From the IMG/VR virus record IMGVR_UViG_3300034022_000350, positions 3,072 to 67,071 of that record: a stretch of 64,000 bases of DNA. The stretch is one strand, 5' to 3'. A program made the position numbers and the translations under genes. Positions 6,425 to 33,213 of the stretch are shown one piece after another. The notes under the pieces were generated by a model, which saw only the letters and a program-made list of their open reading frames with translations, was not told where the DNA came from and searched no databases. The stretch comes from a virus. Position 1 is the first letter of the stretch. The number at the start of each line of letters is the position of its first letter.

Positions 6425-7189
6425 TTATAGGTAATCAAGGACTTGGGAGGAATCTACATTATCAATCAGCTTTTTAATTGCTTGCTTTTTTATCTCTGAA
6501 ATTCTAACATAAGCACTTGCGCCTTCAATGCCTAAATAGTCTGCAATTTGATTTGCAGAATGTTTATCACAGTCTAAACCATAACTCAAACGCAGTACAT
6601 CATATTCATTACCATCTAAATGTTTTTTAAGCAAACTAGTTAGATATAAATTCATTAAGACTACATTGTATGGTTCTGATTGATCTGCTATCTGATAAAA
6701 CGTGTTATCATCATCTTCATCATTCATTTGTTCATCAATACTTAGGAATATAGAATTAAAAAACATAGCTACTAATACGTGATCATTGTTGTTGTCTTTG
6801 CGTATTTCATTTAGCTTATGCTCTGGAATTTTAATAGAGCCTCTATTGATGTCTATGGATCTACGTATGGAGCCTTTGATTCTTTTTGATAGGAATGACT
6901 TCAATGTTGATTCTTTATCATTAGAAGTGTTGATTGTGTCCCACTCTAGTTTATCAATTGCTTGTATTAATCCAATAGATCCTGATTGTATTAAGTCTGT
7001 AATATCTAGTACACCACATGCTTGCGTTGTAGTTGAAAACTTTTTAGATATATTTTCTACAAGTGGTAAGAACTTTGCAATTAACTGATCTCGTGGGTAT
7101 GATTGAAAATCATTATTTAAACTATTCTTATTAGTTTCTTTAATGTCTTCTTTATACCTAATGTAATTTTGTACGTTATAACTTTTCAT
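6425..7189 (-). CDS. Sigma70-family RNA polymerase sigma factor
   Basis: Region 2 (RDQLIAKFLPLV, DLIQSGSIGLIQAIDK), IKIPEHK, and region 4 (VLRLSYGLD...IADYLG...RISEIKKQAIKKL). Confidence 0.9.
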   Translation of the reverse strand: MKSYNVQNYIRYKEDIKETNKNSLNNDFQSYPRDQLIAKFLPLVENISKKFSTTTQACGVLDITDLIQSGSIGLIQAIDKLEWDTINTSNDKESTLKSFLSKRIKGSIRRSIDINRGSIKIPEHKLNEIRKDNNNDHVLVAMFFNSIFLSIDEQMNDEDDDNTFYQIADQSEPYNVVLMNLYLTSLLKKHLDGNEYDVLRLSYGLDCDKHSANQIADYLGIEGASAYVRISEIKKQAIKKLIDNVDSSQVLDYL

Positions 7190-7829: not shown

Positions 7830-8078
7830 TTATATTAATGCAATTAGCTTCTCAACCCTAATTAATTCTTTGTAAACATTTTCAATATCAGGAATAGGTC
7901 TTAAACATTCATTCAAATATTTATCTAATACCTGCGATAATTTTGGATAGTACCATCTGTCTTTTTGCATATAATTTTTCTTTGTTTTTTCATTATATGC
8001 TTCTTTTTCAAAAATTAAAACAAAATTGTTTTCATCTTTTTCTACTTTGTAATTCTCGTCTAATTTTAATGGTGTCAT
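7830..8078 (-). CDS. Hypothetical protein
   Basis: Packed ORF. Confidence 0.65.
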   Translation of the reverse strand: MTPLKLDENYKVEKDENNFVLIFEKEAYNEKTKKNYMQKDRWYYPKLSQVLDKYLNECLRPIPDIENVYKELIRVEKLIALI

Positions 8079-8698
8079 ATGTTTTGATTTAATAGTTCTT
8101 TTTCTTTTTTTAATTCATTGCCAATATTACGGTGTATTGTTCTTGATGTACAACCAAAATGATCAGCTAACTTTTTTATAGTAATCTTTATTGCAAGGTC
8201 GTGCATGTATAGCATCGCATCGTAAATATCGGATTCATTAATCTTTTTTGTTTTACCAATCATCTTACCAACTATAGATAGCTTCTCATTAAGTGTAAGA
8301 TTGCTGTTGTCGTTAAATATAATCTTTCTTACTTTATTATGAGGAGGAGTTTCTAGATCTTGTAAAGATACATCGTACATCATGCTTTGTAGTAATTGCT
8401 CACTAACATTAAATGTAATAAAACCATTTTCTTTATTGCATATATGCCTAACGATTGTTTCAAACTCATTCTGATCAAGATTAGGATTAAGATACCAGAT
8501 AACATACAAATGCCATTTCAATGCTTTAAATGTTGTTATTTTGGCTTTGCTTCTAAACAACTCATAACATTCTGTTGTACCACTTTCATAGAAAGATCCC
8601 CATTCAAACTCTTGCGTTGGTTTATCATTAATTGGTGCTCTTCTATATATCACTCTTCGTTTGTTTAAAAATTCTGTGTTTCTGTTATAGTGCGACAT
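8075..8698 (-). CDS. DNA-binding protein with C-terminal HTH (possible PriCT-like plus HTH initiator/regulator)
   Basis: ITIKKLADHFGCTSRTIHRNI HTH; central LNPNLDQNEFETIVRHI segment. Confidence 0.7.
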   Translation of the reverse strand: MSHYNRNTEFLNKRRVIYRRAPINDKPTQEFEWGSFYESGTTECYELFRSKAKITTFKALKWHLYVIWYLNPNLDQNEFETIVRHICNKENGFITFNVSEQLLQSMMYDVSLQDLETPPHNKVRKIIFNDNSNLTLNEKLSIVGKMIGKTKKINESDIYDAMLYMHDLAIKITIKKLADHFGCTSRTIHRNIGNELKKEKELLNQNI

Positions 8699-8738
8699 TA
8701 GCTTGCTATTTTATTATATTAATTAGCTAGTGTCACAT
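8690..8738. repeat. Inverted-repeat site 1 (13-bp arms, AT-rich spacer)
   Basis: GTGCGACATTAGC-N23-GCTAGTGTCACAT, overlapping the HTH gene start. Confidence 0.8.
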
Positions 8739-8801
8739 TTTATTACTAGACCTAGTCGTTGCTTCATGAGGTACATAATATTTTTTTATTTCTTATACTA
8801 G

Positions 8802-8834
8802 TATTATCAACTACTAATCGTGTTGTGATTGTAA
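8802..8834 (-). promoter_or_regulatory. 33-bp early promoter-like repeat, copy 1
   Basis: Minus strand TTACAATCACAACACGA-N7-TTGATAATA. Confidence 0.7.
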
Positions 8835-9071
8835 GAACTTTTTAATATCACCTATAGTATATATACCCTGTGCACTATTATCTAAAGGAAATACTCTAGT
8901 ATCATCTGGTAATAATTCAGCAATTGCATTCATCCACCTGCTATTATTCATTGATCTGAAGAATATTTTCTCAAAAAATGATGTATTTATGTAATCAAGT
9001 AACTCACCGTCTTCATCAACTAATTTATCTAAATCCACTTTTCTTTGCGGTATTCCAAATGTTGTACTCAT
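8814..9071 (-). CDS. Hypothetical protein
   Basis: Packed ORF whose C-terminus LQSQHD is encoded by the repeat. Confidence 0.65.
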   Translation of the reverse strand: MSTTFGIPQRKVDLDKLVDEDGELLDYINTSFFEKIFFRSMNNSRWMNAIAELLPDDTRVFPLDNSAQGIYTIGDIKKFLQSQHD

Positions 9072-9274
9072 AATTCTTCGTCTGTTATATCTTTTCTTTG
9101 TTGTAATATTTGAAGCAATCTATCTGCTGTTAAAACATATCCAGCTAATGATTCTTCAGTTCCAAATTTTCCGCAATCTCTATAAAAATCAATATGTACT
9201 ATAGTATTTTCGCTAAATGTTTTTATTTCAAAAGTTGTTGTTTGTTCTATTTTTGGTTTGTATAATAAACTCAT
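9068..9274 (-). CDS. Hypothetical protein
   Basis: Packed ORF. Confidence 0.6.
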   Translation of the reverse strand: MSLLYKPKIEQTTTFEIKTFSENTIVHIDFYRDCGKFGTEESLAGYVLTADRLLQILQQRKDITDEEL

Positions 9275-9498
9275 AATCCTTTCTCTTTTTTATAAATTTC
9301 TAATAGTTGTTTTGTTGTTAATTTATCATCATTCCAACTTTCTTGTATTACAAACCACTCTGCAAATCCAATAGCAAATTCATCTTGTTTTTGCTTTTCC
9401 ATTTCTTTGGCTTGTTCTAAAATATTATTTGAAAATACAAATCCAAATTCAGTTTTTAATTTTTCTGTTAACCATTCTACTGCTGTCATCTTATTCAT
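9271..9498 (-). CDS. Hypothetical protein (TAVEWL family)
   Basis: Packed ORF with TAVEWL...QAKEMEKQ. Confidence 0.65.
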   Translation of the reverse strand: MNKMTAVEWLTEKLKTEFGFVFSNNILEQAKEMEKQKQDEFAIGFAEWFVIQESWNDDKLTTKQLLEIYKKEKGL

Positions 9499-9720
9499 CT
9501 TTAAATGTTTCTTTTAATAACTCACACATATGTAATGCTGAAATGACTTTGGGGCAAGTAGGACAAGGTTCAATACTGTTTTTTACGTATGTACACATAA
9601 TTATTTCTTTTTAAATTGTTAATATTCCAAATAATAAAAAAACAAAAAAAACAATTAATCCACCATATACAACAATAGATAACCCCCATTCTTTTATAAA
9701 TTTTTCCATCTTATTTCTTT

Positions 9721-10026
9721 TTAAATTGTTTTCCATTTCCAATCATCACTTGATTCTGACTTAACTTGACAAGAAAAGATTTGATACCCTGCTCTCCAGT
9801 CTGTTAAATGAACAACTCCATCAGGACTTTCAGCTAATAGTACAATATTGCTTAGTGGTGTTTCTTCAAAAACTGTTTTCCATCTGTCTTGCTCTTGTTG
9901 CCATTTAGCACCTATTGCAAAAGAAGCAAAATCAAGTTCTGAAAAATCTATTTCTTTGTAAATCTTATTATAAGCTTCTTCAAGTGTTTCTTTATTTTTC
10001 ATATTATTTATTTTTAAATTGTTCAA
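9721..10026 (-). CDS. Hypothetical protein (ETLEE/AKWQQE module)
   Basis: Shares modules with 10004..10732; true start may be about 10002. Confidence 0.65.
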   Translation of the reverse strand: MNNLKINNMKNKETLEEAYNKIYKEIDFSELDFASFAIGAKWQQEQDRWKTVFEETPLSNIVLLAESPDGVVHLTDWRAGYQIFSCQVKSESSDDWKWKTI

Positions 10027-10732
10027 ACCATTCTTGTTCTGTTAGTTTAGAATCCCATCCATAAGTGTCTGAATAATCCATATTGTCTTGACCTTGTCTA
10101 AATGCCTCTCTTATATCTTCCTCACTATAACTTTTTTCTTGTTGCCATTTAGCCATTTTTACCATTAATTTCTTAACTTCTAAAACTCCAATACTTTGAC
10201 CCATTGATTTAATTCCATAATCGTCAAGCATTTTATGAGCAACTTCTTCAAGTGTTTCTTGTATTGTTCCTACTGGTTGTAATAATGCAGTGTAGTCAGG
10301 TTCTTCTTTTGGAATGATGATTTTGTAAACAGAATGAAATGAATCAGAATGATGTAAAGATAAATAATTTCCATAAGTAGTAATCTCAACAAATTCACAA
10401 CTTGGATAATTTACAAACCATTCTAAAAATTCATCATCAATAGCTTGTACACCATCTTTGATTAAATCTTGGTCTGTTGTTAAGATGATTACATCTTGTT
10501 TAGATGAATATTGAGCACCGCCTGAATTGTAAGGTTCATTTAGAACTTTGTCCAAATACCATTGGTCAACTCCTTCTTTAATTTCTTCATCAGAAGTGAT
10601 GTAAATGTTTTGAGGACTTCTTTCAAATGTTTGAAAGGTTACTGGGTATTTGTAAAACCTAATTTCTTTTGAGTTTCCACTGTACCACAACCTACTTGGT
10701 TTATCCGTTGGTAATATGTGTATGTTTTTCAT
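10004..10732 (-). CDS. Hypothetical protein (ETLEE/AKWQQE module)
   Basis: 242-aa ORF with mosaic modules. Confidence 0.75.
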   Translation of the reverse strand: MKNIHILPTDKPSRLWYSGNSKEIRFYKYPVTFQTFERSPQNIYITSDEEIKEGVDQWYLDKVLNEPYNSGGAQYSSKQDVIILTTDQDLIKDGVQAIDDEFLEWFVNYPSCEFVEITTYGNYLSLHHSDSFHSVYKIIIPKEEPDYTALLQPVGTIQETLEEVAHKMLDDYGIKSMGQSIGVLEVKKLMVKMAKWQQEKSYSEEDIREAFRQGQDNMDYSDTYGWDSKLTEQEWFEQFKNK

Positions 10733-11055
10733 AAGTTAATTTGTATTTTTCTAGTTTCACATCCCATCTTGTGTATAGCACTTGTCTGTCCACAACTACT
10801 ACAATAATCATCTTGCGTACACTTTGGATAGTTGCATTGTTCTATATTACATATCTCACCTTCACGCTTAACACCATTGTGTTTACATTTATTAGAGTAT
10901 TTACCATTAGGCCAGAAGTATGAACAATTAGTTTCATCATCTTCAGGGCCAAAGTTAGCGTAAGACTGCCAAAGCTCACTAGGAGTTGCTGTGAACCTAT
11001 GGCAGTAATCTTTAGTTGGGCATAGGAAGTTCCTACACATTGATATATCTGGCAT
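10729..11055 (-). CDS. Cys-rich hypothetical protein
   Basis: MPDISMC...C...C.RF and multiple Cys pairs. Confidence 0.65.
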   Translation of the reverse strand: MPDISMCRNFLCPTKDYCHRFTATPSELWQSYANFGPEDDETNCSYFWPNGKYSNKCKHNGVKREGEICNIEQCNYPKCTQDDYCSSCGQTSAIHKMGCETRKIQINL

Positions 11056-11057
11056 AA

Positions 11058-11261
11058 TTATAGTTCTTTTAAAATGTTACCGTTGTTATCTAACCAACCG
11101 TCTTGAATTAAAGCGCTAGCTGTTCTACCATAGTGGCCTTGCAAACTGTATTGCATACCGTGTTGAATAATCTCTGAATACATATTCAATGTATCTTGAT
11201 CACTCAATTCACCAGATTCATATTCCATCATTTGATCTATTAAATCTTTAGTTCTTTCCAT
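11058..11261 (-). CDS. Hypothetical protein
   Basis: LQGHYGRTA motif; packed ORF. Confidence 0.65.
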   Translation of the reverse strand: MERTKDLIDQMMEYESGELSDQDTLNMYSEIIQHGMQYSLQGHYGRTASALIQDGWLDNNGNILKEL

Positions 11262-11458
11262 TATTTATTATCTTTTTCTATTAAACTTAGTATATAAGAA
11301 TATACTCTTACTTCTTTGTCGTGTGCTTTTTCTAAGAATATAGCTCTGTCAGGGTCTACTTTCCAATATCTATCTAATTGTAAACTTTCTCTCATAATGT
11401 TAAGGTATATTGCATATACTTTATCATGAGCACACTCTTTGATTTCTTTGTCTGTCAT
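11261..11458 (-). CDS. Hypothetical protein
   Basis: Packed ORF. Confidence 0.6.
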   Translation of the reverse strand: MTDKEIKECAHDKVYAIYLNIMRESLQLDRYWKVDPDRAIFLEKAHDKEVRVYSYILSLIEKDNK

Positions 11459-11459
11459 A

Positions 11460-11933
11460 TTATTTTGGTCTAGTTATTATATTTTCGTTTGCATTTTTTA
11501 CGCTAACTTTTTCTGCTTCATAGTAATTCCAATATGCTTCAACACTATCGCCAGGAACTTTGTATTGATCAGGCATGCATTGTGGCATAGGCGTTTGCTT
11601 TGCGTATAGCATATTCTTTGGTATCCTGCCTAATGGACCGCTGCATTTTAATATAGTTAAATGCTTTTTACCATAACGTCTTGTGTATTCATCACCAAGA
11701 GCTAACATATGAAAGTAAAGCCAAGAATAATTATCAGAGGACTCTCTAGCCCATACAGCTGACGGATGATTTTTATGTGTTACTTTGTAAGGTACGTCAG
11801 CATCATCGCCATCTAATACCACGTGTGCAGTACATAATAATTGCGCAGATTCAAGTATCATTTTTACTACATGCTTGTTATACATATGCTTAGCCGCTTT
11901 TTCAGGGTCTGTGGATAGATAAAATATATTCAT
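11460..11933 (-). CDS. Pyrimidine-dimer DNA glycosylase/endonuclease V-like protein
   Basis: MNIFYL...KHVVKMILESAQLLCTAH...HKNHPSAVWAR...EYTRRYGKKH. Confidence 0.75.
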   Translation of the reverse strand: MNIFYLSTDPEKAAKHMYNKHVVKMILESAQLLCTAHVVLDGDDADVPYKVTHKNHPSAVWARESSDNYSWLYFHMLALGDEYTRRYGKKHLTILKCSGPLGRIPKNMLYAKQTPMPQCMPDQYKVPGDSVEAYWNYYEAEKVSVKNANENIITRPK

Positions 11934-11957
11934 AATTTAATTTGTTGGTTACATTAA

Positions 11958-11990
11958 TATTATCAATTGTCTGTCGTGTTTAGACTGTAA
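11958..11990 (-). promoter_or_regulatory. 33-bp early promoter-like repeat, copy 2
   Basis: TTACAGTCTAAACACGA-N7-TTGATAATA followed by TTAATGTAACC, 25 bp upstream of the ATG at 11933. Confidence 0.75.
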
Positions 11991-12121
11991 GTTGTTGCTT
12001 CTAACTTTTTGTTATGTTTATGTAATCTATTGCTAGTGCAATAAGAACAACTACCGTGATTCCTGCAAGTTTTATCAAATCTTTTAGATTTTCTATATGC
12101 TTGTTTTACTGTTCTACTCAT
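11963..12121 (-). CDS. Small Cys/His protein (52 aa; below the ORF-track cutoff)
   Basis: Hand translation MSRTVKQAYRKSKRFDKTCRNHGSCSYCTSNRLH...; stop lies within repeat copy 2. Confidence 0.6.
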   Translation of the reverse strand: MSRTVKQAYRKSKRFDKTCRNHGSCSYCTSNRLHKHNKKLEATTYSLNTTDN

Positions 12122-12133
12122 AATAATAAATTT

Positions 12134-12196
12134 TGGAACTAAAAGGGGAATCGAACCCCTAAACCCGTCGACAGGCCGTGATCACACACTTAGTTC
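12134..12196 (-). ncRNA. tRNA-like RNA lacking a canonical anticodon loop
   Basis: T-arm AGGGG-TTCGATT-CCCCT, acceptor AACTAAG/TTTAGTT plus CCA, and two shrunken internal hairpins. Confidence 0.6.
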
Positions 12197-12199
12197 TTT

Positions 12200-12430
12200 T
12201 ATTGATCTGCGAACCGGTTTTTCTCTTATACGCATTTTGGTTACAACCTTGGATCCGTTCCGGCAAACTTCACATAACCCCAGATGATCAACAATGTATA
12301 ATATAGGTAAGTTCAATGATACGCAGCACATACATTGACTATTTAAACTGTTTTGTGGCGATTATAGTCCCCAGTGATTATACATATTTATTCAGCATTA
12401 CGCGCTGTTTCCCGCGATGAACCGTGTATA
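12200..12430 (-). ncRNA. Candidate structured non-coding RNA
   Basis: No ORF of 60 aa or more; nested inverted repeats 12294-302/12377-385, 12313-18/12333-38 and 12202-07/12286-91. Confidence 0.4.
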
Positions 12431-12434
12431 GCAA

Positions 12435-12659
12435 CTACACTTGCTTGAACTTGTAAGTGGCTATGATATGTTTCTTAAGGAACTTACCTTTAGAAGGCGC
12501 ATATTTAAACTCACTTACAATATGTTCAGGCACATTAAAGTATTCATATTCTTTACCGCTTTTAAACGTTACAAATAATCTTCTAACATTAGGATAGTAG
12601 GATGCTTCTGATATTGCGCTACTATTAATATCCAATCTTTCAACTAAGTCTAAGTCCAT
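12435..12659 (-). CDS. KTSC domain protein
   Basis: SSAISEASY...LFVTFKSG..YEYFNVP...APSKGKFL..HI. Confidence 0.85.
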   Translation of the reverse strand: MDLDLVERLDINSSAISEASYYPNVRRLFVTFKSGKEYEYFNVPEHIVSEFKYAPSKGKFLKKHIIATYKFKQV

Positions 12660-13096
12660 TATAGTATATGATTATTTGCAAAGTCTTTAGCCTTTCTTGC
12701 GTTATACGCACGGTTTTGTGACATAGTACCAGATCGTTGTGGAGATGGTAACATTAATGATAATTTATTAACAACATCATATATACTATGTTGGTTATTA
12801 ACCATGCCAGTATACACAGCATTCTCAAGATCAAGTATATTAACACTTACATCTAAGTAAACTTTATCATCTTTTATCCAGCCACCCATAAATATATCAT
12901 CTCTGTATAGTTGTGATGCATTGGTACTTACATAATCTCTAATATCTTTGGCATGGAATATATCAGATGGTATAACCATTTCATAGCCATGTAGGCTAAC
13001 CATATAGCCATTAGACGGTGTTGATTCACCAGTTGTTATATTGTAACTAAAGCCACCAGTTAATCCTAATTCGTCTACTAAATTTGTCAAGTTCAT
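12659..13096 (-). CDS. Hypothetical protein
   Basis: GGFSY...GYMVS...MGGW...VYLDVS...NNQHSIYD. Confidence 0.7.
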   Translation of the reverse strand: MNLTNLVDELGLTGGFSYNITTGESTPSNGYMVSLHGYEMVIPSDIFHAKDIRDYVSTNASQLYRDDIFMGGWIKDDKVYLDVSVNILDLENAVYTGMVNNQHSIYDVVNKLSLMLPSPQRSGTMSQNRAYNARKAKDFANNHIL

Positions 13097-13110
13097 ATTG
13101 TTTTTTTTAA

Positions 13111-13356
13111 TTAGTCTAATAATTCCATATAAGCGTCAGAGTTTACTTCAGCAAACCAATATCTAGCACGATCAAAATCTTTATGATGTATACCTGAATA
13201 AGCAATACCCATAATAAAATCATATACACTTAATTCTATATTATTTAATTCAACTGTAACGCCAGAGAATCTATTTGTTACTGCCATGCCCCTTGGATAT
13301 ATCATGCCACGAAACCATTTAGGCGCTTCTGTATTAATGTTTTTTACTTTTGCCAT
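13111..13356 (-). CDS. Hypothetical protein
   Basis: Packed ORF ending AYMELLD. Confidence 0.65.
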   Translation of the reverse strand: MAKVKNINTEAPKWFRGMIYPRGMAVTNRFSGVTVELNNIELSVYDFIMGIAYSGIHHKDFDRARYWFAEVNSDAYMELLD

Positions 13357-13357
13357 G

Positions 13358-13762
13358 TTATTCTTGATCTAAGATTAATAAATTACCGAATACATCTTCA
13401 ATATGTGTTAGCATCGCTTCATCTAATTTAATTGAGATGTTTCCTACATTTAAGTCTATGTTTTGTAATTGTAGTTGATTGTTATACTCTATATTGAATT
13501 CAGCACTATCATAATCGATTGCTTCAGAAGTGTCTAGCTCAAAATAGTTTTCCATAGTATCACGCACTCTTGTTTGGAATTCAGTAAATAGTTTTTCACT
13601 AATACAACTATTATTTACAGGTTGTAATGCAGATACTTCTTCCATTACATTAGTACGTAATTTAGCTAGTATGTATATAACATCTTCTTTACTAAAAATT
13701 GTTGGGAATGCATTGTCGGAATCGCCAATGGCACATTCAAATAGGTCATTAATTTTTTCCAT
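13358..13762 (-). CDS. Acidic hypothetical protein
   Basis: ORF directly downstream of repeat copy 3. Confidence 0.7.
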   Translation of the reverse strand: MEKINDLFECAIGDSDNAFPTIFSKEDVIYILAKLRTNVMEEVSALQPVNNSCISEKLFTEFQTRVRDTMENYFELDTSEAIDYDSAEFNIEYNNQLQLQNIDLNVGNISIKLDEAMLTHIEDVFGNLLILDQE

Positions 13763-13789
13763 TATATTATATTTTATTGGTTACATTTA

Positions 13790-13822
13790 TATTATCAACT
13801 ATTGTTCGTATTGAGACTGTAA
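13790..13822 (-). promoter_or_regulatory. 33-bp early promoter-like repeat, copy 3
   Basis: TTACAGTCTCAATACGA-N7-TTGATAATA followed by TAAATGTAACC. Confidence 0.75.
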
Positions 13823-14020
13823 GACTCCGTGATCTTCAGCGAGCTCGGCAGCAAAGGTGTATAGCAGATCTTCGAATTCGCTAAACCGGTCAGATTGCAA
13901 TTTTGTTAATTTGGATTCACAGATTTTGAAGTCGGTCCATAATCTGTCGGAGATCTTGTCAATGCCTTCATATACCGCTAATTTAATTAGGTTTGATTCT
14001 TTATCGCTTAATGTTCTCAT
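13799..14020 (-). CDS. Hypothetical protein
   Basis: C-terminus LQSQYEQ is encoded by the repeat. Confidence 0.6.
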   Translation of the reverse strand: MRTLSDKESNLIKLAVYEGIDKISDRLWTDFKICESKLTKLQSDRFSEFEDLLYTFAAELAEDHGVLQSQYEQ

Positions 14021-14168
14021 ATAACTTTAATTCAATACTGTTGTTAAATACTCTATCGTAAGCATTAGCCATACTGTCATTGTCAGCATAATGTACTGAT
14101 TGTACAGTTTCACGCATCCATATTTCAAACGCTAATGTATCTTGAAATGCTAAATTATTATTTTCCAT
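14001..14168 (-). CDS. Hypothetical protein (55 aa)
   Basis: Hand translation MENNNLAFQDTLAFEIWMRE...; fills the operon gap. Confidence 0.55.
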   Translation of the reverse strand: MENNNLAFQDTLAFEIWMRETVQSVHYADNDSMANAYDRVFNNSIELKLYENIKR

Positions 14169-14169
14169 A

Positions 14170-14388
14170 TTATTCTATTATTTTTATAAATTGATCGTTT
14201 TTATCGTGTAATCTAGTTAACCCAAATTCACTGTCTAAAGTAGTGATAATGTAATTTATATCAGCATGATTTAAGCAATGAATGAATTCATGGAAACCTA
14301 ACTTAAAACCTTTTTCAACAGCATATGTGTATAGCACAGAGGCATCTACAATGCCTTTGTTACGCATTGCGATATACTTGTTCATCAT
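14170..14388 (-). CDS. Hypothetical protein
   Basis: Packed ORF. Confidence 0.6.
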   Translation of the reverse strand: MMNKYIAMRNKGIVDASVLYTYAVEKGFKLGFHEFIHCLNHADINYIITTLDSEFGLTRLHDKNDQFIKIIE

Positions 14389-14390
14389 TA

Positions 14391-14624
14391 TTAAATAATT
14401 TCTAGTAATTCGCCATGGGTTAATACTCTAACTAGTAGAGTATTGTGTTCAACATCTGTCCATCCATGACCTGAACCTTTACCAATTGGCACTCCATAAT
14501 CTTTATATCTTTGTACTATTCTACCGTTATAATCAGACCCTACAATGATTGCTATTTGCCCGTCTTGCAATTCGCCCATTTGTATTAATTCATCTGCGTT
14601 TTCTATTTTTAATCTTACACTCAT
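14391..14624 (-). CDS. Hypothetical protein
   Basis: Packed ORF. Confidence 0.6.
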   Translation of the reverse strand: MSVRLKIENADELIQMGELQDGQIAIIVGSDYNGRIVQRYKDYGVPIGKGSGHGWTDVEHNTLLVRVLTHGELLEII

Positions 14625-14642
14625 AATTGTTTTGTTTTAATG

Positions 14643-14891
14643 TTAGTATTTATTTATTAATTCTTGTTTAGTTAAGTGGTAATGGTTCCAGTATGCGCTA
14701 CGGCTATGAGCTTTCGCTTTTGCACCATAAGAGGATTTCATTTTGATCTTCACTTGCTTATAATCTTCGCTAGTGAAGCTTTGGCATAGACCGTCAGTAT
14801 TTACCGCATTAATACGGTTAGCCCTATTGCGTGCTTTCTTTTCTTCAAGATATTGGCACGCTTCTTTCATGTTGTTTGCTATTGTTATCAT
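14643..14891 (-). CDS. Hypothetical protein
   Basis: Packed ORF. Confidence 0.6.
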   Translation of the reverse strand: MITIANNMKEACQYLEEKKARNRANRINAVNTDGLCQSFTSEDYKQVKIKMKSSYGAKAKAHSRSAYWNHYHLTKQELINKY

Positions 14892-14892
14892 A

Positions 14893-15075
14893 TTACTTCT
14901 TGATTATATAGGTTAAACCTTTAAAATTAAACCACTCACGGATGCCGTCGGTATCTTGATCTGCATCATAGATAAAAGCGAAACTAGGTGGTAGATCGCC
15001 AATGAGGTAAGGTGTGTATAGCACGCCGCCTACTAGGATTAAATTGTTCTTAAGAAACTTGATTGATTTTTTCAT
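14893..15075 (-). CDS. Hypothetical protein
   Basis: ORF downstream of repeat copy 4. Confidence 0.6.
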   Translation of the reverse strand: MKKSIKFLKNNLILVGGVLYTPYLIGDLPPSFAFIYDADQDTDGIREWFNFKGLTYIIKK

Positions 15076-15101
15076 GGTATATTATTTATTGGTTACATTT
15101 A

Positions 15102-15134
15102 TATTATCAAAGTAGGTACGTGTTAAGACTGTAA
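15102..15134 (-). promoter_or_regulatory. 33-bp early promoter-like repeat, copy 4
   Basis: TTACAGTCTTAACACGT-N7-TTGATAATA followed by TAAATGTAACC. Confidence 0.75.
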
Positions 15135-15233
15135 GTCTTCATCTTCATCATAAAAATCACAGTGTTCTTTACAAGCCCTGCATATATATGTTTCCTCTAG
15201 CCACTCAGGCGCATCACAACACCAACTTAACAT
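15123..15233 (-). CDS. Small Zn-finger-like protein (36 aa)
   Basis: Hand translation MLSWCCDAPEWLEETYICRACKEHCDFYDEDEDLQS; stop lies inside repeat copy 4. Confidence 0.55.
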   Translation of the reverse strand: MLSWCCDAPEWLEETYICRACKEHCDFYDEDEDLQS

Positions 15234-15442
15234 GACTCACTTGTGTGATGGTTAATAACATATTCTTCAAACTCTTCAATTTGATTCTCTAATAACTCAT
15301 AAGCGCATTTACCCATTAAAGTTATATTGGTAACTTCATAGTATTCCGGACAACCCGGATCTTCTAAAGTTTGTAGTTCTTCAGGGTTATAGTATAACCT
15401 ATATTCAAAATCAAAACCTTTGTATTCTATCGTGTGTTTCAT
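15227..15442 (-). CDS. Hypothetical protein
   Basis: Packed ORF. Confidence 0.6.
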   Translation of the reverse strand: MKHTIEYKGFDFEYRLYYNPEELQTLEDPGCPEYYEVTNITLMGKCAYELLENQIEEFEEYVINHHTSESC

Positions 15443-15446
15443 AGCT

Positions 15447-15683
15447 CTATTTAATTACTCTAATAAATTTATAAGCCTCGTTCATCTTATTGTGAATATC
15501 ATACCAGAAATCCCAACCTTCAGCATTGTCATTTAATCCAAATGCTCCCATAATACCATTCTTGTTCTCTTGATTAATCCACCATTCAAAGTATACACCA
15601 CTTGAACTATTACCGTTACAATTCGCTTTAAACTTATCTTGAACATACTTAGGTTGTAGGTCAAACCACTCTAATCTAGTCAT
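15447..15683 (-). CDS. Hypothetical protein
   Basis: Trp-rich ORF. Confidence 0.6.
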   Translation of the reverse strand: MTRLEWFDLQPKYVQDKFKANCNGNSSSGVYFEWWINQENKNGIMGAFGLNDNAEGWDFWYDIHNKMNEAYKFIRVIK

Positions 15684-15708
15684 AATTTTTAATTTAATTG
15701 TTATTTAC

Positions 15709-15807
15709 TTAGTTTTGCAAGGCAATAGCCGCGTATTTCGCTTGTTTTAAGAAGCTTTTTTTGAACTTTAATACTATCACTCTAATAGCATTGGAATAAT
15801 CTCTCAT
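15709..15807 (-). CDS. Small basic peptide (32 aa)
   Basis: MRDYSNAIRVIVLKFKKSFLKQAKYAAIALQN, directly downstream of repeat copy 5. Confidence 0.4.
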   Translation of the reverse strand: MRDYSNAIRVIVLKFKKSFLKQAKYAAIALQN

Positions 15808-15840
15808 AATCGCTGTATTTGATTGTTATTGTTACACTTA

Positions 15841-15873
15841 TATTATCATTCGGTAATCGTATCAAGACTGTAA
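15841..15873 (-). promoter_or_regulatory. 33-bp early promoter-like repeat, copy 5
   Basis: TTACAGTCTTGATACGA-N7-ATGATAATA followed by TAAGTGTAAC. Confidence 0.7.
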
Positions 15874-16000
15874 GTAGGTGGTTGTTTATTTGATAGAAAA
15901 TATAGTATTGTATGTATAACCCCTAACTCCCTCATTTACAGTGTGTTGTAAAACACTCAGGACACTTTTAACTCATATTATTTATTGTTTGTTACACATA

Positions 16001-16033
16001 TATTATCAAATTAGTATCGTGTTGTGACTGTAA
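16001..16033 (-). promoter_or_regulatory. 33-bp early promoter-like repeat, copy 6
   Basis: TTACAGTCACAACACGA-N7-TTGATAATA followed by TATGTGTAAC. Confidence 0.7.
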
Positions 16034-16197
16034 GAGTAGATCGCGAGGATGCTATACGCGCTCGGGGTACCCCCTCGCGGTGATTGTATATATATAGGTA
16101 GAGCTTGCTCGAAAACATAGGTAAACGATTAGGTTTAGAGACTGGATTAGCCTGATTTGCCGCTGTATGTAGTGATTGATGCTAATGGAAGTGTAAA

Positions 16198-16245
16198 ATG
16201 TGACATAAGGGTATTAAGTAAATAAATAAGGGGCTAACGTCACAC
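16198..16245. repeat. Inverted-repeat site 2
   Basis: ATGTGACATAAGG-N22-GCTAACGTCACAC. Confidence 0.75.
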
Positions 16246-16367
16246 TATATTTTGATCGTTCACCTGCCTGTGTATAGCAACTTTAACTATAAAGTAGGTC
16301 GGAGTCTACTCTTCCGACTCTATTTCAAGGTCAGGCCGTGGGTATAGCACTAAAAGTATTTCATAAA

Positions 16368-16414
16368 GTGTGACACTAGCTTATTAAACTAATAATAGTA
16401 GGCTAACGTCACAC
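16368..16414. repeat. Inverted-repeat site 3
   Basis: GTGTGACACTAGC-N21-GCTAACGTCACAC, flanked by AAA/TTT. Confidence 0.8.
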
Positions 16415-16426
16415 TTTTTTGTTAGG

Positions 16427-16660
16427 TTATTCCATAGGATCCGCCATAGGTCCGATGTATATGGTATCGTTCTTAGTAAATTCTAACATTATAGCGGAGT
16501 GATCCATAGGTATTGATTCTTCGTCGTCATTCCAGATTATAACTTGATCTTTACGGACCTCTTCTACGTCACTCGTGTATAGCACCCACGCTGTTCCCAT
16601 TGATCCGAATGTTATGCCTAGGATTGTACCTAGGCATAGATTTTTAAACTCTTTATTCAT
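16427..16660 (-). CDS. Small membrane protein
   Basis: N-terminal hydrophobic segment LCLGTILGITFGSMGTAWVL. Confidence 0.6.
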   Translation of the reverse strand: MNKEFKNLCLGTILGITFGSMGTAWVLYTSDVEEVRKDQVIIWNDDEESIPMDHSAIMLEFTKNDTIYIGPMADPME

Positions 16661-16674
16661 GATATTATATTTAA

Positions 16675-16836
16675 TTAGTTATTGAATAGACTTAAGATAT
16701 AGTTACCTAGATTGATTTGTTCAGGATATAGAGCATTACTGTTTACATGCAAGAAATCATCTAGACTCATAGTTTCTAATAGTGGAAATTGTTTCATAAA
16801 CATTCTCGCTAGTTCGTGTTTTTGTTCTTCGTTCAT
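16675..16836 (-). CDS. Hypothetical protein
   Basis: Likely start MNEEQKH at 16836, just downstream of repeat copy 7. Confidence 0.55.
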   Translation of the reverse strand: MNEEQKHELARMFMKQFPLLETMSLDDFLHVNSNALYPEQINLGNYILSLFNN

Positions 16837-16860
16837 AACATTATTATTTAGATTCATTAT

Positions 16861-16893
16861 TATTATCAATTGTACTTCGTATTTTGATTGTAG
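16861..16893 (-). promoter_or_regulatory. 33-bp early promoter-like repeat, copy 7
   Basis: CTACAATCAAAATACGA-N7-TTGATAATA. Confidence 0.65.
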
Positions 16894-16900
16894 AAGAGGC

Positions 16901-17263
16901 CTATTCGACCTCAACTACATCTAAGTTTGTTACTTGAGCCAAGTGTCTAACATTACTTGGCATATCAGTTGATTGTGACCAATACTCTCGTTTGATCCAA
17001 CAGGGCATTATAGATAACTTCGGGAGCATTATCTTGAGTACTTCGTCATGGTTGTACGTTATTCTTTGATTCTTGTTGTTAACGAACGTTATTACTTGAT
17101 TACGTCCGAGCCAAGACTTTCTGACTACAAAGTTAGCTCGTTCGATCGGTGGATAGATCAGAGCCAGATCTTCTGGACTCAGCTTCGAGATAGCTTCAGA
17201 TATTAATTCTTTTGAAGTTTTTACAACTTCTACAACTTCTACTTCTTTTTTAAATTTGTTCAT
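16901..17263 (-). CDS. Hypothetical early protein
   Basis: 120-aa ORF downstream of repeat copies 8 and 9. Confidence 0.7.
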   Translation of the reverse strand: MNKFKKEVEVVEVVKTSKELISEAISKLSPEDLALIYPPIERANFVVRKSWLGRNQVITFVNNKNQRITYNHDEVLKIMLPKLSIMPCWIKREYWSQSTDMPSNVRHLAQVTNLDVVEVE

Positions 17264-17302
17264 GATTTTTGTTATTTATTAGATTATTATTAGTTACATT
17301 AT

Positions 17303-17335
17303 TATTATCAAATACTATTCGTACTTAGACTGTAA
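17303..17335 (-). promoter_or_regulatory. 33-bp early promoter-like repeat, copy 8
   Basis: TTACAGTCTAAGTACGA-N7-TTGATAATA followed by ATAATGTAAC. Confidence 0.75.
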
Positions 17336-17388
17336 GAACTATAATTTTATTAATTATATTAAGATCGTTACTTTGTTACTTACATCTA

Positions 17389-17421
17389 TATTATCAAATA
17401 CTCTTCGTATTAAGACTGTAG
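17389..17421 (-). promoter_or_regulatory. 33-bp early promoter-like repeat, copy 9
   Basis: CTACAGTCTTAATACGA-N7-TTGATAATA followed by TAGATGTAAG. Confidence 0.75.
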
Positions 17422-17490
17422 ATAGATCTAACGGATGCTATACGCAATGCTATACATACAAAGATCCTATTGCTAGGATCCTTGATTTAT

Positions 17491-17724
17491 TTATTCTGCT
17501 TCAAATATATTATATTCAAAGAAGTCATATATTCTAAACAACCATTCTGTTATGGATTCTGTATATTCTTCTGTTACAGTATCATAATTTCTTAATAATC
17601 CTGATTGATCAGCTATCCAGTCTTCTAGTTCTTCTGTTATTTTAAATTCTTGATCTGATCCATAATTACTTTCTGTTATTAATCTTTCAACTGTAGTCTG
17701 TAAATCTTTTTCTGTTAATTTCAT
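17491..17724 (-). CDS. Acidic hypothetical early protein
   Basis: 77 aa, Glu/Asp-rich. Confidence 0.6.
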   Translation of the reverse strand: MKLTEKDLQTTVERLITESNYGSDQEFKITEELEDWIADQSGLLRNYDTVTEEYTESITEWLFRIYDFFEYNIFEAE

Positions 17725-17794
17725 GATTATTTATTTATTTAATTAGTTATTTAATATAGTCAGTTTTATAACTTGACTAGGTTATTATTATTAT

Positions 17795-17974
17795 CTATCT
17801 GATAGAATATTTATAAAAATTTCTGTTCAGTATATTATCTACTTCGTCTAGATCTTTTCTATTTATTATTAGATTATCATTTAATATATAAAATGAATGA
17901 TTCAGTTTATTTGAATTAATTAATATTGAATTAATTAAAGACTTGAAATTCTGATTGATTTTTAATTTGATCAT
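17795..17974 (-). CDS. Hypothetical early protein (59 aa)
   Basis: Hand translation MIKLKINQNFKSLINSIL...FYKYSIR, directly downstream of repeat copy 10. Confidence 0.4.
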   Translation of the reverse strand: MIKLKINQNFKSLINSILINSNKLNHSFYILNDNLIINRKDLDEVDNILNRNFYKYSIR

Positions 17975-18018
17975 TTTAATTTATTTATTTAGTTATTATT
18001 AATATTTATATTCAACTA

Positions 18019-18051
18019 TATTATCATTTTGATCTAGTGTTCAGACTGTAA
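18019..18051 (-). promoter_or_regulatory. 33-bp early promoter-like repeat, copy 10
   Basis: TTACAGTCTGAACACTA-N7-ATGATAATA. Confidence 0.7.
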
Positions 18052-18305
18052 ATAAAAAAAAATATATTGATCAGATGCTATACGCATGCTATACACTACG
18101 CGTTGCTCCGTGCTACCACGAATGCACACGCCAACCGTAAGGCATCAAACAATCATTAGCTATCAATAATATCTTAACTAGTTATCGATCGATCCTGGAC
18201 CACGGAAAAGGCAAACTCATTTCCATGAAATCAAAATATGATGGGGGACCCGGTAAAACCAAAGTCATTCCCTTTCTGGGGTGCTTCCGTAGATATGCAT
18301 ATATG

Positions 18306-18402
18306 ACCCGTTACTTATATATTTACAATACGTTTTCATATGTGCCGTTGTTTATATATTCATAATATAATTTTTTTTTAAAAACCCGTTACTTATATAT
18401 TT
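18306..18402 (+). repeat. 19-bp direct repeat (2 copies) in the divergent junction
   Basis: ACCCGTTACTTATATATTT at 18306-18324 and 18384-18402. Confidence 0.85.
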
Positions 18403-18484
18403 GTAATACATTTTATTTTGGAAGCATTATTTTTTTTTACGATGCGTTATATTTCATATTCCGATATGAGATATGGGTTATAAA

Positions 18485-18532
18485 GTGTGACGTTTGCTAG
18501 TTATATATAATAGTAGTAGGCTAATGTCACAC
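18485..18532. repeat. Inverted-repeat site 4
   Basis: GTGTGACGTTTGC-N22-GCTAATGTCACAC. Confidence 0.8.
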
Positions 18533-18547
18533 TGTAAAGTATTGTAA

Positions 18548-18585: not shown

Positions 18586-20148
18586 ATGGCGTTTAAATTA
18601 AGAAGTAGTTCTCCTTTAATGCAGATAGATCCGCCGGGTAAAGTTAAGTACGGCACGCCTGAATATAAGAAGGCATATGATAAAGGTGAGGTTATAAGTA
18701 AGAGTGGTGTTAGATCACCTATTGCTTTGGATGAGGTTGTTGTAAGAGGTAAGCCTAAAGAAAAAGGTTTTTGGAAGCAGTCTATAAGTAAGTATACTAA
18801 AGAGAATAAAGATACTGGATTGTTGGGGGCTATTGGATCTGTTGTAACATACCCAATGTCTGTACCACAGGATGCAATGACTTATGCTACTACGGGTAAA
18901 GTTCAGAGACCATCGGAAGCGTTAAAAATAAAGAATCCTATTGGTGCTGCTGCAACTGATATGGTATTGGATCCCACTAATTTAGTTGGCGGTGGTGTTG
19001 TTGGTCCTAAGGTAGTAAAAGCGGCTGGTAGAGTATTACCTAAGATTGGGGCTAAAATAAGTAAAGGAGTAAAGTCTGCTGCGTCTTCTTTCAATAGAGT
19101 AGATAATGCAATAAAAAAATCAGATGCTTTAATTTCGAAGATTGATGATCTTACTAAGAATGCCAGTGCTGTGGTTAAAAAGCCAAGCCAAGTTGTTCAT
19201 GATCTTGGTGGCACGGACGAGATAGATGAGTGGGGAAAAATGAGTGAAAAGTGGGAGGCTTCAGATATTTCTGCTGGTAAGAAGATTGATAAAAAAGCTA
19301 AATTACACAAAGGCAAGTTTGTAGAAAAATACGGTACGCAATATAATGAGCATGATGTAAAGTTGCATGGTAGATTACAAGAAACAGAATTAGGTAGAAG
19401 AGATCCAAAAGTTGCTACTGTAATTTCTGAGGAAAGAGATATAAAAAAATACAAATCAAAAGATCCTGCAACATTAAAAGGCGTTAAATCTAGTAATAAT
19501 TCAGAGAAAATTTTTGAAAAAAAGCACGGTATAAGTAAAAGTTATACAAAAACAGATGAGTTATTAAATAATGTGTATACTCACGGATATGATAACAGTA
19601 TAAACCTTAGAGGTACTAGAGGTGGTGACCCAATTAATAAAAAGTTTTATAAAAAAGAGGTTATACCAAAGCTTGAGAATTTAGTTAAAAAAAATAAACT
19701 AAAATCGGACGAAATATTATATAGAGGCGATACAGACTATCCTGTTAAAAAAGTTTGGAGAGGCGGTGTTAAGCAACCAAAAGGGTCTATTAAGTTTTCT
19801 GAATTACAAGTTGGTGATGTTTGGAAACCTGGTTCTTTTGTAAGTACGTCTAGAGAGAAATATATTGCGGAAGGATTTGGAACTATACAAAGCGATATAA
19901 AGGCTCCTCCTGGGCAATCAATATTAAGTTCCAATGCTGTTAAGGGTGGAGAATTTGCTTCTGAAAAAGAAATACTATTACCAAGTAAGTTAAAATTCAG
20001 AGTAGAAAGTAAAGTTAAAAAGGGGCGTGGAAAAAGTGGTGGTAAATCCGGAGACAAAATAGCTTACAAACAATCAATAGTAAATCCTTATACCGTAGGT
20101 AGCGGCATTGCTATTAGCGGTATGCTTCAAGGTAATAAAAAAAAATAA
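18586..20148 (+). CDS. Putative virion protein with C-terminal ADP-ribosyltransferase (VIP2/C3/Alt-like)
   Basis: R-S-E triad: ILYRGD, GSFVSTS, SEKEILLP...FRV. Confidence 0.8.
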   Translation: MAFKLRSSSPLMQIDPPGKVKYGTPEYKKAYDKGEVISKSGVRSPIALDEVVVRGKPKEKGFWKQSISKYTKENKDTGLLGAIGSVVTYPMSVPQDAMTYATTGKVQRPSEALKIKNPIGAAATDMVLDPTNLVGGGVVGPKVVKAAGRVLPKIGAKISKGVKSAASSFNRVDNAIKKSDALISKIDDLTKNASAVVKKPSQVVHDLGGTDEIDEWGKMSEKWEASDISAGKKIDKKAKLHKGKFVEKYGTQYNEHDVKLHGRLQETELGRRDPKVATVISEERDIKKYKSKDPATLKGVKSSNNSEKIFEKKHGISKSYTKTDELLNNVYTHGYDNSINLRGTRGGDPINKKFYKKEVIPKLENLVKKNKLKSDEILYRGDTDYPVKKVWRGGVKQPKGSIKFSELQVGDVWKPGSFVSTSREKYIAEGFGTIQSDIKAPPGQSILSSNAVKGGEFASEKEILLPSKLKFRVESKVKKGRGKSGGKSGDKIAYKQSIVNPYTVGSGIAISGMLQGNKKK

Positions 20149-25047: not shown

Positions 25048-25442
25048 TGAAAACAATAGTAGAAACAAATACAGGAAAAGTTTTATTTACAGTAGTAGAT
25101 AATTATGAATTGCAAGATAATCAAATGTTGATTGATTTTTTAGTAACTGAAAACTTTATTAATCCTTGCTGGAATTTTGAAACTCAAGTATTTTATGAAG
25201 GAGCAACAACTCAAGAAATAAATGATATCAGAATACCACAAGCAATAGAAATAGATTTATATTATACGGGACTTATCTCAGACCTTTTAAGAAAACACAT
25301 TGAGAAGTTAAGTATTGACAATGTGCCAATACCTCAAACAGCAATTGATGAAAGAGATAGGCTGAGAGTAGAATGTAACCAGAAGATTACAGATTTAGGA
25401 GTAACAAATTTTGCATATAGACAATCAAACTTAAAATTATGA
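25047..25442 (+). CDS. Tail fibre assembly/chaperone-like protein
   Basis: Follows the fibre gene; FINPCWNFETQVFYEGAT. Confidence 0.55.
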   Translation: MKTIVETNTGKVLFTVVDNYELQDNQMLIDFLVTENFINPCWNFETQVFYEGATTQEINDIRIPQAIEIDLYYTGLISDLLRKHIEKLSIDNVPIPQTAIDERDRLRVECNQKITDLGVTNFAYRQSNLKL

Positions 25443-32986: not shown

Positions 32987-33213
32987 TGGACTCTGTTATT
33001 AGAAAGATAAGTATAGGCACAGACTATAAGAATGAAGCAATGCATTATTCAATTGGACAACAAGTATATGGTGGTCACGAAATAATCCACATATTGCTAG
33101 ACCCTATAGATTGCTCTTACTATATTTATATAAAGAAAAATGAAGAAGTAATGCCGTGGAAGAAGTTTAATTCTAATATGGCTATTTCTGTTGAATATGA
33201 CTTAGAATATTAA
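32986..33213 (+). CDS. Hypothetical protein
   Basis: Packed ORF. Confidence 0.7.
   Translation: MDSVIRKISIGTDYKNEAMHYSIGQQVYGGHEIIHILLDPIDCSYYIYIKKNEEVMPWKKFNSNMAISVEYDLEY

Follow-up and report, generated by a model that had tools for sequence, protein, structure and literature searches.

A strand-oriented ten-base word overlaid on the early genes of an uncultured tailed phage and its relatives, with a possible stoperator-like role

A short asymmetric DNA word, GTGTATAGCA, built on the octamer GTATAGCA, recurs in a regular arrangement across the early genes of a tailed phage known from the IMG/VR record IMGVR_UViG_3300034022_000350. The stretch analysed here (the window, 64,000 nucleotides) covers bases 3072-67071 of this 67,071-bp record, which CheckV rates as complete and which has a G+C content of about 33%. 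Comparison of related loci shows that the word is conserved in a large clade of uncultured phages, and it is present in at least hundreds of uncultured genomes. We tentatively read it as an asymmetric stoperator-like cis-element through which one DNA-binding protein would act on RNA polymerase in a direction-dependent manner during early transcription; we give this reading slightly less than an even chance. No description of the word was found in open-access papers and preprints, supplements aside.

An initial annotation, made by a model from the letters of the window, had listed fifteen octamers between positions 8207 and 18094, and every one of its coordinates and strands is an exact match. 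Counted on both strands, the window holds 17 copies, while 100 dinucleotide-preserving shuffles gave a mean of 2.85 (standard deviation 1.64, maximum 8) and never reached 17. The frequency of the octamer is not uniform: 15 of the 17 copies are inside 8207-18094, i.e., in 15.5% of the window (binomial P = 6.8e-11). The annotation had spotted only one copy elsewhere, at 60049 on the minus strand. That copy is real, but a second outside copy, at 4055 on the plus strand, had been missed. The word is sharply defined. All 24 one-mismatch variants together give three occurrences in 8000-18200, and the 12 copies of the extended form G[T/C]GTATAGCA are confined to 10771-18094. In a logo of 57 single sites from six related genomes, G occupies position -2 in 47 sites and T position -1 in 49, and no further base is conserved within 20 on either side. 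The resulting ten-base word is GTGTATAGCA, and its logo lacks palindromic symmetry.

The orientation of the copies goes with promoters and not with position, a point that was absent from the initial annotation. The promoter-like repeat has the form TACAGTC-N5-ACACGA-N8-TTGATAATA, lies 25-35 nt before an ATG and has TGTAAC following TTGATAATA. Ten such repeats are found on the minus strand in 8802-18050, with upstream ends at 18050, 17420, 17334, 16892, 16032, 15872, 15133, 13821, 11989 and 8833; no good copy was found in the window outside this interval, and the domain of the word is the domain of the early promoters. Numbered from the low end, copy 6 is 16032-16001, copy 9 is 17420-17389 and copy 10 is 18050-18019. 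Copy 10 is the first early promoter, and copies 8 and 9 precede the gene of a protein of 120 amino acids (aa), which is considered below.

Two classes of site can be distinguished. The first (head copies) consists of five minus-strand octamers that are co-oriented with the promoters and precede copies 6, 9 and 10 by 15-25 nt; their place upstream of these copies and the two tandem pairs are as the annotation had described. The single head copy (16050-16057) is co-oriented with transcription and lies 17 nt upstream of promoter copy 6. The pair 17436/17448 (17436-17455, period 12 bp) lies 15 nt upstream of copy 9, next to a hairpin at 17463-17480 that is listed as terminator-like on the plus strand. 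The pair 18076/18087 (18076-18094, period 11 bp) lies 25 nt upstream of copy 10 and has a G+C-rich stretch upstream of it. The second class (body copies) consists of inverted single copies about 1.1 kb apart throughout the 10-kb early region. The 12 copies of the window that do not accompany a promoter, among them the two outside the cluster, run without exception antisense to the local open reading frame (ORF). The two orientations interleave: 16050 on the minus strand lies to the left of 16272, 16342 and 16577 on the plus strand, and the same is seen in the related genomes G001 and G002. Each early promoter of the window has at least one body copy downstream, 61-1400 bp away. As follows from the coordinates, the GCA end of the word faces RNA polymerase in both classes: in head sites it points toward the promoter a few bases downstream, and in body sites it points upstream, toward the arriving polymerase.

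The annotation had also stated that many copies are inside coding sequence. This holds for seven of the ten plus-strand copies of the region and for the copy at 4055, all eight of which lie within minus-strand ORFs, six in the frame xTG-CTA-TAC and two in GCT-ATA-CAx. From the low end, the body copies are 8207-8214 in the ORF of a 207-aa protein (8075-8698; codons ATG CTA TAC); 10773-10780 in ORF 10729-11055 (GCT ATA CAC); 11604-11611 in the ORF of a 157-aa protein (11460-11933); 12426-12433, directly beyond the stop codon of ORF 12435-12659, which encodes a KTSC domain; 13859-13866 in ORF 13799-14020 (CTG CTA TAC); 14329-14336 in ORF 14170-14388 (GTG CTA TAC); 15016-15023 in the ORF of a 60-aa protein (14893-15075; GTG CTA TAC); the non-coding 16272-16279 and 16342-16349, which are flanked by two long hairpins; and 16577-16584 in ORF 16427-16660 (GTG CTA TAC). 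Outside the cluster, the copy 4055-4062 is antisense within the primase-helicase ORF and is preceded by AT, not GT, and the isolated minus-strand copy 60049-60056 is antisense within a late ORF of 2563 aa and may be a chance occurrence.

These coding copies are written with rare codons: CTA makes up 13% of Leu, TAC 24% of Tyr and GTG 8% of Val codons, yet of the 14 Leu-Tyr pairs in early ORFs six use TG-CTA-TAC. When the 33 early ORFs (9063 nt) were shuffled synonymously, the word appeared on the antisense strand 0.32 times on average and at most three times; the observed seven copies were reached in none of 2000 shuffles, which is an enrichment of about 20-fold over the synonymous expectation. 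Copies are also retained in relatives at orthologous places although third-codon-position identity is often only 0.5-0.7. In G002, six of eight copies are kept, with a third-position identity of 0.55-0.93, the upper value coming from one gene; apart from that gene, the G002 and G001 comparisons span 0.52-0.74. In G001, four of six orthologous copies are kept at 0.52-0.61, and in G003 one of four at 0.43-0.50. The copies at 8207, 13859 and 15016 are kept in both G002 and G001. The copy at 14329 is kept in G001 and lost in G002, that at 4055 is kept in G002 and G003 and lost in G001, and the place of 11604 is kept in none of the three. Where a copy is lost, the orthologue often has an octamer at another place in the gene, so the density of octamers appears to be more conserved than their position. 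The distance from a body copy to the next gene start looks, by eye, no different from what short genes would give.

The arrangement recurs well beyond this phage. Five related records contain 8-20 octamers each, compared with 0-3 for the reversed control word, and in each of them co-oriented tandems stand at the head of the early region with inverted singles through about 10 kb behind. An IMG/VR scan for two octamers 2-6 bases apart retrieved at least 118 stretches. Among the matches listed, a tandem period of 12 bp occurs 88 times, and periods of 10, 11, 13 and 14 bp occur 14-20 times each, which is about the chance level. A composite element recurs among them: a G+C-rich GGAGCG/GAAGCG stretch, then GT-GTATAGCA-ACGC-GTATAGCA, then the promoter.

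A set chosen independently of the motif was obtained from 80 of the 158 loci that encode a relative of the 120-aa protein, the sole early ORF common to all five compared genomes. At least one copy of the octamer is present in 77 of the 80 loci and at least three in 70, and 39 of the 40 loci with at least 5 kb of downstream sequence carry two or more inverted copies. In 1-kb bins from -2 to +2 kb around the 120-aa gene, co-oriented octamers number 24, 136, 69 and 20, and all other bins together hold one. Inverted octamers number 61, 20, 42, 34, 25, 29, 22, 24, 22, 13 and 5 in the successive 1-kb bins between 0 and +10 kb, compared with 15 in the ten upstream bins, and the reversed-word control is near zero. 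A full promoter pattern follows within about 90 nt in 115 of the 169 distinct co-oriented clusters, and 25 more have the GATAATA box only; for inverted copies, a promoter follows in 42 of 270. The distance from the end of the last octamer to the TACAG box is 0-6 nt in 28 of 57 cases. The tandem period in these protein-fetched loci is 12 bp in 27, 13 bp in 14 and 11 bp in 6. The inverted copies are spaced more evenly than at random: their 203 intervals have a median of 1106 bp and a coefficient of variation of 0.60, while the random expectation is 0.95 and the lowest of 500 simulations is 0.80. Intervals shorter than 400 bp number 29 instead of the expected 56, although the loci are related and the samples are therefore not independent. 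Taken together, the codon-shuffle enrichment, the retention at orthologous places and the layout in 77 of 80 relatives make the earlier suggestion of a dispersed, oriented binding site overlaid on genes well supported.

Several other features accompany the sites. The same tripartite promoter-like pattern is seen in many relatives. Tandems are preceded by stretches of G+C-rich GGAGCG/GAAGCG-like hexamers in otherwise A+T-rich genomes at many loci, e.g., at 18095-18125 of the window. Four long hairpins with arms of the AAAGTGTGAC...GTCACACTTT type (about 22 nt) are found at 8685-8743, 16194-16250, 16363-16417 and 18480-18537, and in several relatives such a hairpin stands about 30 nt before a tandem octamer. 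These hairpins may be two-way terminators or protein sites; their TGTGA..TCACA core is CRP-like. Sampled words of 8200-18190 are present in contigs of two lake-water metagenome runs (98% and 86%), the first of which may derive from the source sample; together these contigs cover nearly all of the window, and no RNA run is listed as containing the sequence. Other lake-water contigs join one promoter copy to another (8841 to 17368, 17998 to 13774, 15874 to 12087), and therefore the promoter repeats look like junctions of early-cassette exchange or of assembly collapse.

The following mechanism would account for the two classes of site. One face of one bound protein would meet the polymerase at both: at head sites the protein would hold or recruit polymerase at the promoter, and at body sites it would stall polymerase, acting as a polar block within genes. 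As the reader protein accumulates, the early region of about 10 kb would be paced, or shut off in a graded or timed way, each promoter-driven unit having one block or more, and the head copies would be the promoter-side control point of the same protein. The three roles offered by the initial annotation were guidance of DNA internalisation or translocation, protection of the first-entering DNA, and early-gene shut-off. The last fits best, in the form of a stoperator-like polar block. The role of a DNA-translocation guide is weakened because the orientations interleave near the head instead of switching once.

In 596 Gb of bacterial and archaeal genomes the tandem 20-mer occurs five times, four of them in phage-like contigs of Bacteroidota metagenome-assembled genomes (MAGs). 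Being nearly absent from bacterial genomes, and mostly in phage-like contigs where present, the tandem is therefore not a host regulatory element; because of the same absence the reader is probably encoded by the phage.

The leading candidate for the reader is the 120-aa early protein (16901-17263, minus strand), whose gene is flanked by octamer sites, but we regard this attribution as doubtful. A metagenome search at E <= 0.001 recovers 1465 cluster representatives for the protein, and the majority of the best 120 are 77-94% identical; many of its polar residues are invariant, and its gene is among the most conserved of the clade. It belongs to no Pfam or PHROG family and has no relative among 50,697 GenBank phage records. 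Among 123 motif-fetched loci, about half of which are chance matches, 43 have its gene no more than a few hundred bases from the tandems. With the structural model, Foldseek gave nothing at E <= 0.001 in the PDB and the Atlas provided no usable match; a wide structural search reached a best Z of 3.3, its top rows being restriction-endonuclease-like folds at a level that is counted as common. The second candidate, the 207-aa protein (8075-8698, minus strand), has a weak C-terminal HTH_11 match (E 8.7e-4, below the Pfam cut-off) and is present in 35 of 37 relatives. The 157-aa protein is related to pyrimidine-dimer glycosylases (T4 endonuclease V-like) and is present in 36 of 37. A PDB sequence search found no match for the 120-aa profile or for the 207-aa and 157-aa proteins. 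Across 37 loci, the presence or absence of 34 proteins (33 early ORFs and the sigma factor) compared with octamer density yielded no clean predictor: the KTSC protein (74 aa) and an 82-aa protein are absent from all four octamer-poor loci, but from many rich ones too. No early protein cleanly tracks octamer density, and the 120-aa and 207-aa proteins are therefore only candidate readers.

A number of observations weigh against the stoperator-like reading. Its whole mechanism is inferred from layout. The head copies are upstream of the promoter and not over it, which would suit an activator or an insulator equally well. Transcription, and probably DNA entry and perhaps replication as well, pass through the region in one direction, which makes polarity towards RNA polymerase inseparable from polarity towards another machine. 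The word is invariant despite 120-aa proteins that are 30-45% identical, and this would be easier to understand with a slowly evolving host reader. The model of the 120-aa protein has a mean predicted local distance difference test score (pLDDT) of 72.6, and no DNA-binding fold was matched by it. Some relatives are poor in octamers: loci L198, L200 and L202 have only three copies each, and L216 (genome G068; 41.7 kb, 8.3 kb of it downstream of the 120-aa gene) has one. L216 nevertheless retains homologues, 60-88% identical, of the 120-aa, 207-aa, 157-aa and 60-aa proteins and of the sigma factor, and therefore none of these five is shown to need the sites. A search of L216 for a substitute motif gave nothing convincing; its record is incomplete, which limits its comparison with genome G069. 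With their conserved early proteins and promoters kept and one to three octamers left, these four loci are natural 'knock-outs' that could help to reveal the function of the sites.

The mechanism could also be stated more broadly. The phage may possess a polarity system in which a small protein of unrecognised fold, from the 120-aa family, reads the invariant 10-mer and imposes direction on whichever machine tracks the first 10 kb of the injected genome; we consider this rather unlikely. The 10-mer would be written via rare codons at a spacing of about 1.1 kb, the promoter-side tandems would be a loading or control point, and the outcome might be that host RNA polymerase is arrested at a set time, that DNA enters stepwise, or that a fork or nuclease meets a barrier.

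Other explanations give the word a different reader or none. It could be a polar signal for a tracking machine other than RNA polymerase, with a function in stepwise entry, as a barrier to a fork or helicase, or in priming of the lagging strand within the 10 kb that enter first; the promoter-side tandems would then be the loading site or origin. The body copies do have one orientation and an even 1.1-kb spacing reminiscent of Okazaki-length or fail-safe intervals, the word's domain and the early region end together, the phage encodes its own primase-helicase, and the head sites are iteron-like, with a helical-turn period, beside G+C-rich and A+T-rich stretches at a divergent junction. We still find this explanation unlikely: the co-oriented copies go with individual promoters and are interleaved with the inverted ones, so that there is no single origin or switch point, the record is permuted, with a gene split across its ends, and known primases read about three bases, not ten. 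The strict orientation of body copies relative to transcription, the exact complementarity of the two classes and the presence of sites in coding and non-coding RNA alike would also be expected if the early mRNAs carried UGCUAUACAC for an RNA-binding factor (antitermination of the boxA/ops type or targeted cleavage), or if this RNA paired with GUGUAUAGCA in read-through RNA from the head sites. What is conserved in the head copies, however, is the promoter distance on DNA (0-6 nt in 28 of 57) and the helical-turn period; moreover, the 17436/17448 pair lies behind the terminator-like hairpin at 17463-17480 and may rarely be transcribed, and Rfam has no family in the region save a weak tmRNA-like fragment elsewhere. 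An RNA-level element, with the pairing variant included in the estimate, thus seems distinctly unlikely.

A host reader is what a Chi-like site would imply, one that tames a RecBCD/AddAB-type nuclease of the host at the first-injected end and so shields the early region. If a genome end were at the head of the early region, the body copies would be on the strand ending 3' there, and the strand ending 3' at a DNA end is the active orientation of Chi in Escherichia coli. The word is exact and frame-independent, one copy is met within about 1 kb, and its invariance across diverged phages is as expected for a conserved host reader. The annotation had proposed to look at octamer frequency in host genomes, and the outcome is negative for the sample available: 61 genomes from the class that one Bacteroidota MAG belongs to contain the octamer and its reversed control at about equal frequencies (the densest has 191 octamers in 2.9 Mb), although the actual host may lie outside this sample. 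The prefix GT precedes 5 of 191, 6 of 110, 12 of 183, 13 of 222 and 7 of 113 octamers in the five richest genomes, i.e., 3-7%, as composition predicts, and the two MAGs with phage-like contigs have no octamer excess. A Chi-like role is therefore highly unlikely, and it would leave unexplained the inverted tandem copies that abut promoters, with co-oriented copies tracking promoters. The word, being strand-specific, exact and dispersed, might also mark specific sites where a phage enzyme nicks one strand, as happens in T5 and certain other phages, and the T4 endonuclease V-like 157-aa early protein, found in nearly all relatives, would be one candidate enzyme. This protein is present in octamer-poor L216 as well, and nicking would not explain the association with promoters; we hold it to be very improbable. 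Finally, the word might have no function and be due to chance, composition or a peptide (V/L/M-L-Y-T) shared by paralogous small proteins, given that six of eight coding copies encode x-Leu-Tyr in one frame. But the eight octamer-bearing proteins are otherwise unlike one another, and three of the ten body copies and all five head copies are non-coding. The synonymous shuffles and the recurrence of the layout in relatives lead us to reject this possibility, whose probability we consider negligible.

The genome around the early region is that of a tailed phage with two divergent arms. The minus strand from about 18.0 down to 7.2 kb is packed with small ORFs (the early region). Beyond it the same strand encodes a sigma factor (6425-7189), directly past the end of the octamer domain, an Erf-like annealase, an exonuclease, the primase-helicase (2736-4442), thymidylate synthase and a MazG-like protein. 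On the plus strand, 18,586-62,479 is occupied by the genes of an ADP-ribosyltransferase-domain protein, a tail-fibre-like protein, an endolysin, GroEL, terminase, portal and structural proteins, and two giant proteins of 2031 and 2563 aa. The two ends of the record (window 63304-63999 and the record's initial 2 kb) each carry part of a ribonucleotide reductase-like gene; therefore, the assembly is circularly permuted and the record ends need not be those of the genome. In the ORFs scanned, no gene for an integrase, a repressor or lysogeny was noticed, and no tRNA gene was found in the window.

By its terminase, the phage is closest among deposited phages to MW202828.1 ('Caudoviricetes sp.' from a spring, 64%), which has two octamers in the first 50,000 of its 60,850 bases. 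The next nearest are podophages of Flavobacterium, Cellulophaga, Tenacibaculum and Maribacter (at most 44%); on account of this kinship a host in Flavobacteriia is likely. GenBank phage records gave no megablast match for 8000-18500 and no tblastn match for the 520-aa protein encoded by the first gene of the plus arm (18586-20148). The C-terminal part of this protein matches the ADP-ribosyltransferase exoenzyme family (E 1.5e-7), and it could be a host-modifying enzyme. A 498-aa protein (25439-26935, plus strand) with DUF4874 and DUF4832 has a weak, sub-cut-off Pfam match to the sorting tail of type IX secretion; the protein has a host-like appearance and is a hint of a host among the Bacteroidota. 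GroEL (29016-30560, E 1e-131) is accompanied on the plus strand by a protein matching a PHROG family annotated as co-chaperonin GroES (33213-33821). A crAss-like virion polymerase was considered and rejected, as the five largest late proteins have no D-x-D-x-D motif. At the divergent junction before the first plus-strand gene there are three 31-nt direct repeats of the ACCCGTTACTTATATATTTACAATACGTTTT type (18306-18414), which may be promoters of the other arm or origin repeats. The weak Rfam match is an intergenic tRNA T-arm-like hairpin with a GGTTCGATTCC core at 12144-12160 on the minus strand (tmRNA, E 0.019), which also has a terminator-like call.

To our knowledge, no part of a phage genome is less well understood than the early region, and for phages of Flavobacteriia-like hosts there is next to no information on gene control. 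The word is exact and easily recognised, is written against codon preference and obeys a clear geometric rule, and can thus serve as a handle for finding its reader protein and for delimiting early transcription units in metagenomic phages.

The closest known system is that of cluster A mycobacteriophages, where a monomeric repressor with an HTH and a stoperator domain binds more than 20 asymmetric 13-mers at promoters and within transcribed regions, the orientation of stoperators follows transcription, and reversed sites do not repress (PMC9283540). The word described here resembles the operators and stoperators of this L5 gp71-type repressor in being short, asymmetric and exact, in having many copies at promoters and in transcribed regions, and in an orientation tied to the direction of transcription, which in cluster A is also needed for the block (PMC9283540). 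It differs in length (10 bp, not 13), in having 7 of 10 body copies inside ORFs instead of in short intergenic gaps, and in being confined to about 10 kb of early genes. The cluster A operator is at the promoter and bars polymerase binding; the head copies here stop 0-40 nt short of the upstream box of the promoter and point the opposite way to the body copies. No candidate protein resembles the solved repressor by sequence, the scanned ORFs showed no noticeable integrase or repressor gene, and the likely host phylum is different. The word offers a means of testing whether stoperator-like polar silencing, so far described in only one group of temperate mycobacteriophages, also serves apparently lytic phages.

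Comparisons can also be made beyond repressors. Tus-Ter, RTP and TTF-I at Sal boxes are asymmetric protein-DNA complexes that halt a tracking enzyme from one side only, and ribosomal DNA has a promoter-proximal T0 site, with one copy just upstream of the promoter besides copies elsewhere, a likeness to the present layout. These systems are cellular and have longer sites; we know of no example of polar terminator or barrier proteins in a phage early region. The even spacing and strict polarity of the word make it a natural test case for such one-sided stopping. Factors bound just upstream of promoters that contact polymerase are known from phages, namely phi29 p4 and T4 MotA, and the same contact of p4 activates one promoter and holds polymerase at another; we are aware of no dispersed intragenic copies and no inverted class of their sites. 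Origin iterons occupy one short region, while the head sites here (two pairs and one single) are at three promoters over 2 kb and the singles extend over 10 kb. Chi and KOPS are exact oriented 8-mers overlaid on genes and read by a tracking machine, but they are genome-wide and enriched in the host chromosome. The word, by contrast, is confined to the early region of the phage, is not enriched in the sampled Bacteroidota genomes and has a promoter-bound class; unlike translocase guides of the KOPS/SRS type, it has no single orientation switch, the orientations being interleaved in the window, G001 and G002. If the polarity system outlined above were true, it would be the first 'architecture-imparting' system of oriented words that is known to belong to a virulent phage rather than to a chromosome.

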